The notes beneath the pieces are model-generated. The model was not told the DNA's origin and made no database searches. It worked only from the letters and a program-made list of their open reading frames with translations. From contig CAMCJY010000001.1 in assembly GCA_945875225.1 (NCBI GenBank), positions 1 to 49,326 on the forward strand: a DNA stretch of 49,326 nt, written 5' to 3'. Origin of the DNA: Comamonas sp. lk (GTDB lineage Bacteria > Pseudomonadota > Gammaproteobacteria > Burkholderiales > Burkholderiaceae_C). The position numbers and the translations under genes are program-made. Shown in pieces: positions 30,876-33,549 of this stretch; the first letter of the stretch is position 1, and the number at the start of each line of letters is the position of its first letter.

Positions 30876-32105
30876 ATGGCCCGCGAATACAAAGACTTAG
30901 TCGTTGGACTGGACATCGGAACCGCCAAAGTGATGGCGGTAGTGGCCGAGGTGCTGCCCGACGGCAGCCTGCGTCTGGCAGGTTTTGGCTCGGCGCCTAG
31001 CAGCGGACTCAAGCGCGGCGTGGTAGTCAACATCGATGCCACGGTACACAGCATCCAGCAGGCGCTCAAGGAAGCCGAGTTGATGGCCGATTGCAAAATC
31101 ACCCGCGTCTATACCGGCATTACCGGTAGCCATATTAGGGGCCTGAACTCCAGCGGCATGGTGGCCATCAAAGACCGCGAAGTGAGCCAGGCCGATGTCA
31201 CGCGCGTGGTGGAAACTGCTAAGGCCATCCATATCTCCAGCGACCAGCGCTTACTGCTGGTCGAGCCGCAGGAATTTGTGATAGACGGCCAGGATGTGAA
31301 AGAACCCATTGGCATGAGCGGCATGCGCCTGGAAGCCAAAGTGCATATCGTCACCGGCGCGCAAAGTGCGGCGGAAAACATCATCAAGTGCGTGCGCCGT
31401 TGCGGCCTGGAAGTCGAGCAACTCATGCTCAACCCGCTGGCCTCCAGCCTGTCGGTGCTCACCGAAGACGAGCGCGAACTGGGCGTGGCGCTGGTGGACA
31501 TCGGCGCTGGCACCACCGACATTGCCATCTTCACCAACGGCGCTATCCGCCACACCGCCGTCATCCCGATCGCCGGAGACTTGATTACCAGCGACATCGC
31601 CATGGCGCTGCGCACACCGACCAAGGACGCAGAAGAAATCAAAGTCGAAAGTGGCCACGCCAAGCAAGTGCTGGTGGATCCGGAAGTGCAAGTGGAAGTA
31701 CCCGGCCTGGGCGACCGTGGCCCGCGCATGCTCAGCCGCCAGGCCCTCTCCGGTGTGATCGAGCCGCGCATAGAAGAAATTTTCACCCTGGTCAACCAGG
31801 TCATGCGCGAGTCCGGCTACGAAGAAGTGCTGTCCTCGGGCATTGTGCTGACCGGCGGCAGTTGCCTGATGCCGGGCATGGTGGAGCTGGGCGAAGACAT
31901 TTTTCTCAAGCCGGTGCGCCGGGGCATTCCCCAGTACGCCAATGCCTTGTCCGACATGGTGGCGCAACCCCGCGCCGCCACCGTGATGGGCTTTTTGGAA
32001 GAGGCCCGTATCGCGCGTCTGCGCGGCATCAAAGTGGCCCAAAAAGGCGGCAGCGTGAAGAGCGCATTTGCCCAGATTCGTGATTTTTTTGCAGGAACTT
32101 TCTAA
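30876..32105 (+). CDS. ftsA: Cell division protein FtsA
   Basis: GLDIGT.K, VDIGAGTT, VLTGG, C-terminal amphipathic helix. Confidence 0.98.
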   Translation: MAREYKDLVVGLDIGTAKVMAVVAEVLPDGSLRLAGFGSAPSSGLKRGVVVNIDATVHSIQQALKEAELMADCKITRVYTGITGSHIRGLNSSGMVAIKDREVSQADVTRVVETAKAIHISSDQRLLLVEPQEFVIDGQDVKEPIGMSGMRLEAKVHIVTGAQSAAENIIKCVRRCGLEVEQLMLNPLASSLSVLTEDERELGVALVDIGAGTTDIAIFTNGAIRHTAVIPIAGDLITSDIAMALRTPTKDAEEIKVESGHAKQVLVDPEVQVEVPGLGDRGPRMLSRQALSGVIEPRIEEIFTLVNQVMRESGYEEVLSSGIVLTGGSCLMPGMVELGEDIFLKPVRRGIPQYANALSDMVAQPRAATVMGFLEEARIARLRGIKVAQKGGSVKSAFAQIRDFFAGTF

Positions 32106-32270
32106 ATGAAAAACTCCCCGCTCGCGCGCCGCCGCACTTGGCTCCACTGCACTTCGCTTTATCTTTGGATGGCACGCGCTGGGCCGCCGCCAGACCCTGT
32201 TTGTTTTCTCAAGCCTTTCTCATTTTTTTCCATCGCCACGCATACCTTAGGAGCCTCACATGACCATTGA
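32106..32270 (+). CDS. Candidate 54-aa uORF of ftsZ with RAGPPP arrest-like motif
   Basis: ATG directly after the ftsA TAA; MKNSPLARRRTWLHCTSLYLWMARAGPPPDPVCFLKPFSFFSIATHTLGASHDH*; stop lies inside the ftsZ 5' end. Confidence 0.45.
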   Translation: MKNSPLARRRTWLHCTSLYLWMARAGPPPDPVCFLKPFSFFSIATHTLGASHDH

Positions 32271-33549
32271 ACTCATCGAAGAAGAAATCTTCAACCAGGG
32301 AACCCTCATCAAAGTCATTGGCGTGGGCGGCGGCGGCGGCAATGCGGTTGAGTACATGATTCAGTCGCACGTGACGGGCGTGGAATTCATCTGCGCCAAC
32401 ACCGATGCGCAGGCACTGAACCGAAGCACCGCACACCGTACGATTCAGCTAGGCGAAACCGGTCTGGGTGCAGGCAGCCGCCCGCACAAAGGACGCGCTG
32501 CTGCAGAGTTGGCCGAAGCGGACATCCGTAGCGCTATTGAAGGCGCCAATATGCTGTTTATTACCGCCGGCATGGGCGGTGGCACCGGCACTGGCGCCGC
32601 CCCCATCATTGCGCGGGTGGCCAAGGAAATGGGCATCTTGACCGTAGGCGTGGTGACCAAGCCTTTCGAATTTGAAGGCGGCCCGCGCATGAAAAACGCG
32701 GACGAAGGCCTGGCCGAGCTGGAAGCCAATGTCGATTCGCTGATCGTGGTGCTCAACGAAAAACTGCTCGAAGTGCTGGGCGACGATATCAGCCAGGATG
32801 AGGCCTTTGCCTATGCCAACGATGTGTTGAAAAACGCCGTAGGCGGCATTGCCGAGATCATCAATGTGCCTGGCCATGTGAACGTGGACTTTGAAGACGT
32901 GCGCACCGTGATGGGCGAGCCCGGTAAAGCCATGATGGGTACCGCCCTGGCCAAAGGCCCAGACCGTGCGCGCATCGCGGCCGAACAAGCCGTGGCCTGC
33001 CCGCTGCTCGAGGGCATAGACCTGTCGGGCGCCAAAGGCGTGCTGGTGCTGATCACCGCGGCCAAAGGTTCGCTCAAATTGAGCGAATCCAAGCTGGCGA
33101 TGAACACCATCCGCGCCTACGCCTCGCCCGAAGCGCATGTGATCTACGGTACCGCTTATGACGACTCGCTGGGCGAAGACGTGCGCGTCACCGTGGTAGC
33201 CACCGGCCTGAGCCGGCCGCGCCGCACTGCGCCTCCGCTGCAAGTGCTGCGCACCGGCACTTACGATGCCGCGCCCTCGGCCATGGCCAACACCCATGCG
33301 GCCATGTCCGCAAGTACGATGCAACGCAGCATGGGCAACAGCACCATGGCGTCGGCCTCAGGCATAGGCGGCAGCACCGGCATCAGCGCCCCGGCACCGG
33401 CGAGCGCCTCCACCGACTACGGCACGCTTCGCACTCCCGCCGTCTGGCGCGGCAGCCGCACCACCGCTGCGCAAAAAGTAGATGCGCTCTCGAGCGGCGG
33501 CATGGACGATTACGAAATCCCGGCCTTCTTGCGCAAGCAAGCGGATTGA
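32260..33549 (+). CDS. ftsZ: Cell division GTPase FtsZ
   Basis: GVGGGGGNA, GMGGGTGTG, NVDFED, C-terminal EIPAFLRKQAD; AGGAG RBS. Confidence 0.99.
   Translation: MTIELIEEEIFNQGTLIKVIGVGGGGGNAVEYMIQSHVTGVEFICANTDAQALNRSTAHRTIQLGETGLGAGSRPHKGRAAAELAEADIRSAIEGANMLFITAGMGGGTGTGAAPIIARVAKEMGILTVGVVTKPFEFEGGPRMKNADEGLAELEANVDSLIVVLNEKLLEVLGDDISQDEAFAYANDVLKNAVGGIAEIINVPGHVNVDFEDVRTVMGEPGKAMMGTALAKGPDRARIAAEQAVACPLLEGIDLSGAKGVLVLITAAKGSLKLSESKLAMNTIRAYASPEAHVIYGTAYDDSLGEDVRVTVVATGLSRPRRTAPPLQVLRTGTYDAAPSAMANTHAAMSASTMQRSMGNSTMASASGIGGSTGISAPAPASASTDYGTLRTPAVWRGSRTTAAQKVDALSSGGMDDYEIPAFLRKQAD

Follow-up and report, generated by a model that had tools for sequence, protein, structure and literature searches.

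The gap between ftsA and ftsZ in the window (the whole stretch of DNA analysed in the current work, being 49,326 nucleotides from Comamonas sp. lk) holds a small open reading frame (ORF) that is real and that belongs to a family of short, motif-bearing ORFs starting at the ftsA stop codon; a chance origin, which the initial annotation of this locus had left possible, is excluded because the ORF is conserved in relatives. The comparison of sequences shows that selection acts on the encoded peptide, and on its motifs only. The reading that we favour, and which we hold to be moderately probable, is that of a cis-acting pause or arrest leader joined to the ftsA stop codon, on which a parked ribosome would help to keep ftsZ expressed, probably by holding off Rho.

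In the window, the ORF, a candidate ribosome-pausing leader peptide of ftsZ identified from its translation and its relatives, occupies positions 32106..32270 of the forward strand, as do all features given below, and encodes the 54-aa product MKNSPLARRRTWLHCTSLYLWMARAGPPPDPVCFLKPFSFFSIATHTLGASHDH. Its ATG adjoins the stop codon of ftsA (30876..32105; TIGR01174) in the junction TAA-ATG, and it covers the 154-nt ftsA-ftsZ gap to end 11 nt into ftsZ (32260..33549; TIGR00065), the inferred regulated gene, in a different frame. Comparison within the own clade delimits a conserved core W-x-A-R-A-G-P-P (32166..32189), which includes a SecM-type R-A-G-P (32175-32186) whose Pro codon at 32184 lies 76 nt upstream of the ftsZ ATG; the window translation reads RAGPPP at 32175-32192, with GPP at 32181-32189. 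Between the predicted stall site and the ftsZ Shine-Dalgarno (SD) sequence TAGGAG (32248..32253) extends a G-poor, weakly structured tract (32195..32248; 24 T, 18 C, 7 A and 5 G in 54 nt), which is a candidate Rho loading, RNase or ribosome stand-by region, and the spacer folds worse than 198 of 200 shuffles. The initial annotation had described the abutting ATG, the 54 codons running over the gap and past the ftsZ SD and start, the RAGPPP and the G-poor tract; all of these hold base for base, and the tract (5 G in 54 nt) is also a trait of the family.

The peptide has no match in Pfam or NCBIfam, both of which were searched, and a search of the protein collection returned three close homologues, all unnamed. 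An Rfam scan of 31900-32400 gave two matches only, both far under threshold, and no promoter or terminator consensus was found within 31500-32400. Among 30 same-strand gaps of 100-300 nt in the same genome, six carry an ATG at -1 to +3 of the preceding stop, and ftsA-ftsZ alone combines a near-coupled ATG with a following xPP or R[AG][GS]P; taken in this one genome, the case for the ORF is weak and could be chance.

Relatives were sampled through loci collected via FtsZ only, from which the spacers were cut blind to their content. The sets comprised same-genus genomes (135 loci, minus 5 and 1 duplicate, giving 129 distinct spacers), 120 named loci (of about 2300 pattern matches), one genome from each of 89 genera, out of 149 in the family that had a match, and an outgroup of 67 loci from other families of the order, of which 65 were usable (2 dropped). 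Sixteen of 340 loci were dropped for lack of ftsA or ftsZ in the retrieved DNA and nine duplicate spacers were merged, with 315 spacers entering the count of ATG offsets. Named relatives put the window's genus close to Rhodoferax, the peptide encoded by locus L048 being identical to that of locus L002. A tree of FtsA/FtsZ (FastTree, 180 rows, many open forks) was used solely to split two large clades. All counts are samples of related genomes, in which kin are not independent draws, and the motifs were defined on the same translations in which they were later counted; the frame and codon tests given below are independent of that choice.

Within the genus, an ATG at -1 to +3 of the ftsA stop, followed by an ORF with R[AG][GS]P or [DGSA]PP, occurs in 117 of the 129 distinct spacers, that is, in 117 of 118 spacers of at least 110 nt and in none of the 11 spacers of 54-101 nt. 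The lone exception among the long spacers (L223) has TGA where its kin have Trp, upstream of a DPP motif; this copy is otherwise intact, the TGA representing a nonsense allele or a sequence error. In the Comamonadaceae clade of the tree (named members Acidovorax, Variovorax, Ramlibacter, Limnohabitans, Polaromonas and Comamonas), the ORF is found in 89 of 113 rows, or in 37 of 50 when one genome is counted per genus; several of the 24 unlabelled rows are PP-only variants or a displaced copy, and ten have spacers below 100 nt. In the sister clade (Roseateles, Aquabacterium, Rubrivivax, Ideonella), 44 of 56 rows are without the ORF. The other families of the order present a coupled ATG in 5 of 65 loci and an uncoupled RGGP in 2 of 65, which we read as chance, with no convincing case among the 65. 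The ORF has been lost in several lineages and is therefore dispensable, and the lineages without it mostly possess a shortened spacer instead.

A Rhizobacter/Caldimonas-type subclade of the sister clade carries an ORF that starts 5-26 nt past ftsA and contains RAPP, HDPP or RDPP some 98-149 nt upstream of ftsZ (L039, L043, L046, L050, L055, L072, L078, L094, L124, L271, L300, L306 and L310). At one further locus (L280; G187:C1:3287001-3291697), two tandem ftsZ copies lie downstream of the small ORF.

The translational coupling proposed in the initial annotation recurs among the relatives. Across the 315 spacers, an ATG stands at offsets -1, 0, 1, 2 and 3 from the ftsA stop in 50, 35, 18, 113 and 8 cases, whereas almost every offset between 4 and 40 has 0-8, and the junctions of the 222 coupled ORFs are of the types TGACCATG (46), TGATG (46), TAAATG (32) and similar others. 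A 4-nt SD match precedes just 25 of the 222, and ribosomes finishing ftsA are the likely source of re-initiation on the ORF.

The reading frame of the motifs follows this ATG. A three-frame search placed 138 of 143 matches to motif 1 (R-[AG]-[GS]-P) in frame with the coupled ATG, 7-60 codons from it, whereas the same matches scatter over the frames relative to ftsA (34/16/93) and to ftsZ (35/48/60); likewise, 181 of 193 [DG]PP matches fall in the coupled-ATG frame. Information per base at codon positions 1, 2 and 3 is 1.47, 1.53 and 0.44 bits for motif 1 (n = 137) and 1.62, 1.63 and 0.72 for motif 2 (n = 76), and all six Arg codons as well as all six Leu codons are in use. All 30 motif-bearing loci of the own clade (31 examined) share the same W, R and first P, while four Arg, four Ala, and two and four Pro codons are in use, and conservation stops directly after the second P. 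Conservation of RAGP(P) in frame, as amino acids and with synonymous variation, was the check that the initial annotation had proposed, and the spacers of relatives bear it out.

Insertions either preserve the frame or are accompanied by a restored coupling. In 10 of 11 loci matched by a repeat pattern, a motif remains in frame after a repeat has been inserted. In three loci (L256, L311 and L286), an insertion has displaced the peptide, and a relay ORF starting at the ftsA stop ends on the peptide's ATG through an ATGA overlap or a TGA-C-ATG junction. The repeat is GC-rich, reads AAGPPQG...GGS...ASVGA in one orientation and inserts in frame (L012, L014, L087, L185, L189, L198 and others); L014 carries it twice in its ORF.

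The consensus of the family is M-x(3-4)-W-L-A-R-G-S-P-[HP]-x-R-W-R-[CS]-x-[DG]-P-P, followed by a stop codon or by any tail. Motif 1 exists as RGSP (85), RAGP (37), RASP (12) and RGGP (3) among 137 loci, and the second motif is RWRxx[DG]PP. Motif 1 or an xPP is present in 204 of the 222 coupled ORFs, in which either motif may be lost but rarely both; the 18 ORFs without either are a misfit to the model. Where motif 1 ends in a residue other than Pro, a later PP is found in 61 of 73 loci, and a second RAGP occurs in several of the remainder. In the window's clade, motif 2 is absent and motif 1 is kept as RAGPP, the conserved unit being W-x-A-R-[AG]-[GS]-P plus the diproline. GPP is the commonest diproline context and is freely replaced by DPP, SPP and APP; an R or H two residues ahead of the first Pro of motif 2 is missing from the majority of loci, and the coupled frame shows no excess of R/HxPP (16 matches there versus 11 and 33 in the other two frames). 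For the Arg before the Trp of motif 2, the rare codon CGA is used in 95 of 128 cases, as opposed to 10 of 765 Arg codons in ftsZ 5' ends. Motif 1 starts 7-8 codons past the Met in 77 of 138 loci and 22-23 codons past it in the own clade, while the distance from the Met to the last PP has a median of 26 residues and a minimum of 12. Up to the last PP, 5.7% of residues are Trp and 14% Arg, and no hydrophobic stretch was seen by eye in the peptide. The motifs are under-represented in the own proteome (observed/expected: RAGP 7/16, RGSP 3/7, RASP 2/10.5, GPP 39/99, DPP 31/58); an avoidance of arrest-type proline motifs by proteomes is described in the sections of PMC12992588 drawn on here.

Outside the motifs little is kept: conservation extends neither to the 3' half of the ORF nor to its overlap with ftsZ, nor to the third proline. 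ORF length in relatives ranges from 14 to about 80 aa, or extends as an in-frame FtsZ fusion, the shortest natural form being the 14 codons of MKHRLWLARGSPPS (e.g. L194). Of the 222 coupled ORFs, 111 end well before ftsZ, 11 within 20 nt of it, 86 in an out-of-frame overlap and 14 as in-frame fusions; in the latter, read-through would yield FtsZ lengthened at its N-terminus by some 45 residues or more. Such fusions were noted at L012, L014, L016, L148, L177, L180, L190, L207, L212 and L222, and also at L224, L240 and L243. That the ORF has 54 codons and crosses the ftsZ SD and start, as the initial annotation had pointed out, is thus incidental, and a model that needs ribosomes over the ftsZ ribosome-binding site, or a tract exposed by the stall, cannot be general, since the ends vary and half of the ORFs (111 of 222) stop well before ftsZ. 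Similarly, PPP is not the conserved unit, because only half of the own-clade loci (15 of 30) retain the third Pro.

The position of the motifs is held relative to the following gene. From the last xPP to the ftsZ ATG the quartiles are 76/80/89 nt (n = 193), with a standard deviation of 12 nt to the ftsZ ATG versus 29 nt from ftsA, and in the own clade the Pro codon of the motif lies 74-88 nt from the ftsZ ATG. In one same-genus subclade, an flhD homologue (PF05247, E 2e-22) sits between the small ORF and ftsZ, in a spacer of about 560 nt (L018, L020, L195, L200, L216, L220, L223 and L402; e.g. L200:1119-1442), which puts a flagellar master regulator inside the dcw operon. There the diproline lies 85-87 nt from the start of the inserted flhD, which represents one event.

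The tract downstream of the motifs has a G fraction of 0.15 in the family, compared with 0.22 where the ORF is missing and 0.27 in gaps of the own genome. Over 183 loci its composition is A 0.32, C 0.27, U 0.26 and G 0.15, with a median C/G of 1.8 (above 1 in 84% and above 2 in 40% of loci); being as much A/U-rich as C-rich, it is a weak rut signature. It is less folded than its shuffles (mean fold z +0.64). A near-palindromic element, GGCAACTGCA, was noticed ahead of the ftsZ SD at ftsZ -24 to -37 (e.g. L038, L052, L062 and L080), and GGCAACTGCA may be a protein site or part of a promoter; GCAACTG is found in 52 of 183 loci with the ORF versus 51 of 86 without, and is absent from the window. 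A -10-like [CT]A[CT]AAT at ftsZ -23 to -28 occurs in 20 of 86 ORF-less loci versus 2 of 183 with the ORF (Roseateles-type examples at ftsZ -24: L037, L074, L266 and L337), and may be a promoter dedicated to ftsZ that takes the place of the peptide. The 22 sequencing runs found consisted of contigs; of the four compared with the locus, X1, X3 and X5 each have a single contig spanning ftsA, the spacer and ftsZ, which shows neither a transcript nor its ends, strand or level and carries no weight here.

A free N-terminus, a free tail, conservation restricted to avoided proline motifs and a fixed distance point to a nascent peptide acting in cis, and from these marks we infer that ribosomes re-initiate once ftsA is finished, that they pause at R-x-x-P and/or xPP, and that ftsZ is affected. 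In the favoured scheme, ribosomes ending ftsA would re-initiate on the small ORF, and the nascent peptide would pause or arrest its own ribosome at R-[AG]-[GS]-P and/or the following diproline, about 75-85 nt before ftsZ. That ribosomes pause on the ORF is likely; that the pause acts on ftsZ output is likely too, though less so. The parked ribosome would shield the G-poor tract from Rho and thereby sustain ftsZ expression: parked at -80, it would leave about 40-45 free nt ahead of the ftsZ initiation region; if it passed and was released promptly, 70-130 nt would lie bare. A length of 40-45 nt of free RNA is less than Rho generally needs. As half of the ORFs leave the tract untranslated anyway, what the ORF would add is a ribosome held at -80 and consequently less bare RNA. 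Protection from Rho, for which CruR of Bordetella is the model, is the favoured but least certain step and a weak one: the tract is only moderately C-rich, and DaaP-like processing to a stable ftsZ mRNA would suit this geometry equally. The own genome contains efp; rho was not found in its 80% complete assembly, and 5 of 5 close relatives with near-complete genomes have it. Of the natural RAPP/RAGP-like motifs assayed in vitro, the majority gave no arrest, according to the parts of PMC10987492 consulted. Since the nascent chain would be short at the stall, a pull by export or folding, as on SecM, is ruled out as the input; this would instead be the translation state itself, that is, EF-P activity and charged Pro, Trp and Arg tRNA, such that slower translation would raise FtsZ relative to FtsA.

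The main rival, which we consider unlikely, assumes the same pause and lets the stalled ribosome direct mRNA cleavage, or cap a processed 5' end, so that a stable mRNA of ftsZ alone would result and the FtsZ:FtsA ratio would be high; DaaP acts in this way on daaE, the gene of the fimbrial subunit. An even distance to the following start, an A/U-rich and unstructured tract, the prevalence of GPP among diproline contexts, an hrpA over the cut-off in the own genome and, in the accounts drawn on here, the setting of the FtsZ/FtsA ratio by RNase E in E. coli would all suit such processing, but not the ease with which GPP is replaced by DPP, SPP and APP. A decidedly improbable alternative is a SecM-like switch, in which the stalled ribosome melts a helix over the ftsZ start, for instance one between CGAUGG and ftsZ codons 2-3. 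In its favour, the rare CGA-TGG of motif 2 is retained, and the spacing of 79-80 nt is the same as that of secM-secA; moreover, ftsZ +0..+10 is the main predicted partner of CGAUGG in 19 of 74 loci, with a mean pairing probability of 0.24. Nevertheless, when the ribosome footprint is masked, the mean energy needed to open the ftsZ start moves only from 7.13 to 7.09 kcal/mol (n = 183), and that of the SD-AUG region from 4.83 to 4.39 and from 5.00 to 4.71, own pairs are no better than permuted ones (15% of permutations being as good) and show no covariation, the same segment pairs better with ftsZ +56..+95, and the window's clade has no motif 2 and an unstructured spacer. A hairpin over the ftsZ start, considered as a general feature, thus received little support from masking and permutation. 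The ATG nested in CGA-TGG was discarded as a second start, its frames relative to ftsZ being 26/18/30 with no common ORF.

Should the stall or a read-through instead lower ftsZ, by queueing or by Rho loading behind the stalled ribosome, the leader would be inhibitory, a reading to which we give little probability: it gains from the 97 of 222 ORFs that reach or cross the ftsZ start out of frame, in which a stall would bare the tract, and loses by the 111 of 222 that end soon past the motif and leave it bare regardless, by the finding of both forms of ORF end in close relatives, and by a stall site about 60 nt short of the SD. Selection at the peptide level is also what would be expected of a small Trp/Arg-rich protein acting in trans on FtsA, FtsZ or the membrane; its Trp (5.7%) and Arg (14%) content up to the last PP is in keeping with this, and co-translation with ftsA would fix its stoichiometry. 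We regard such action as very improbable, given that the products vary in size between 14 aa and FtsZ fusions, that their C-terminal tails are unrelated and lie in any frame, that repeats insert in frame and that the N-terminal length is free, and given a constrained distance from the motif to the next start that a trans product would not need. Finally, a chance ORF, a conserved DNA or RNA element or read-through of the ftsA stop deserves next to no credence. In the window alone the ORF happens to be in frame with ftsA; across relatives, however, the frame tracks the ORF's own ATG and not ftsA, the motifs have codon-position periodicity, relay ORFs restore the coupling, and there is no Rfam match near threshold and no promoter or terminator consensus. 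Read-through of ftsA was rejected because the frame relative to ftsA varies.

The level of FtsZ and the FtsZ:FtsA ratio decide the timing of division, and their tie to growth is a long-standing question. A stalling peptide at this position would, if true, connect translation to division directly, and in a form open to mutation, in a large family of environmental bacteria. No ftsZ leader peptide was found in the open-access literature searched (subscription papers lying outside it), and the initial annotation likewise knew of no such control; the modes of ftsZ control at the junction met in the parts of that literature consulted are promoters, RNase E and antisense RNAs. The main texts of PMC10987492 and PMC12992588 do not mention fts genes, and 'ftsZ' was not found in the searched parts of their supplements, other tables of which could list such ORFs; 'cell division' and 'Rhodoferax' were not found in the searched supplement parts of PMC12992588. 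As far as searched, therefore, this small-ORF family was previously unnamed and is a variant of arrest or leader peptides at a central cell-division junction.

Among known systems, the E. coli ftsA-ftsZ junction, where the gap is 60 nt, provides post-transcriptional control of FtsZ at the same place, but its agents are the StfZ and DicF RNAs and RNase E (as described in sections of PMC9628754) and not a translated ORF. The Arg/Pro C-terminal cores of ApdA, ApdP, ApcA and the Streptomyces set (PMC12992588, in the sections drawn on) lie in small uORFs, as here. RAPP or HDPP stands at the same place before ftsZ in the Rhizobacter/Caldimonas-type subclade, and an R or H two residues before PP is met only there (RAPP, HDPP, RDPP); the RAPP/RGPP peptides, in the accounts consulted, are for the most part secretory or membrane proteins, 100-200 aa long, and precede sec, TonB or metal genes. 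CruR of Bordetella pertussis (DUF2946), for which RAPP stalling has been proposed to block Rho (PMC9426467, as far as consulted), is likewise a betaproteobacterial uORF that has a RAPP-like motif and is separated from the next gene by a long gap; however, it heads a copper-homeostasis operon, whereas the present ORF is internal to the dcw cluster, and its signal peptide, Cu-sensing CXXC and RAPP are all absent from the window peptide. DaaP, in the E. coli F1845 fimbrial operon, gives a stable daaE mRNA through HrpA-dependent processing, according to the portion of the literature seen. The tripeptide that matters in its nascent chain is reportedly GPP, and to our knowledge it has no SecM-type motif. 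Like the present ORF, it is a small internal ORF with a short proline motif before the gene needed in the highest amount; GPP in a small internal ORF and hrpA in the genome are the DaaP-like features seen here, and operon and taxon differ.

In its motif the ORF resembles SecM, in that the same interchangeable core is found as RAGP (E. coli), RGSP (Mannheimia) and RASP (uORFs of the SecM cluster) in the sections of PMC10987492 consulted, with a Trp upstream in both; the Trp lies three residues before the Arg in the ORF and eight in SecM. Both stand upstream of the regulated gene, and the calculated 79 nt from Pro166 of SecM to secA compare with the median of 80 nt from the last xPP to ftsZ. The ORF nevertheless is not a member of SecM: it has no PF06558 homology (PF06558 itself was not found in the 80% complete own genome) and no signal sequence evident by eye, its chain is too short to leave the tunnel, and it is placed before ftsZ rather than before secA or Sec/YidC genes. 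Nor is it a member of CruR, having no CXXC and no RAPP and lying inside an operon. Further differences from SecM are the frequent second xPP motif, the operon-internal position coupled to ftsA, and folding that predicts no general SD-hiding hairpin. If the pause is true, this would be a natural SecM-type arrest sequence merely 7-22 residues from its own start and, since an arrest so near the start would not be released by force, a minimal model for the relief of such arrest. A more far-reaching reading, which is tentative, is that a family-wide, operon-internal arrest peptide ties elongation capacity (EF-P and the supply of Pro, Trp and Arg tRNA) to the FtsZ:FtsA ratio, with a convergent RAPP/HDPP lineage that has its own SD. 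If true, translation stress would trigger division, and the arrest chemistry of SecM would be at work here without export or folding force, fed by ribosomes arriving from ftsA.
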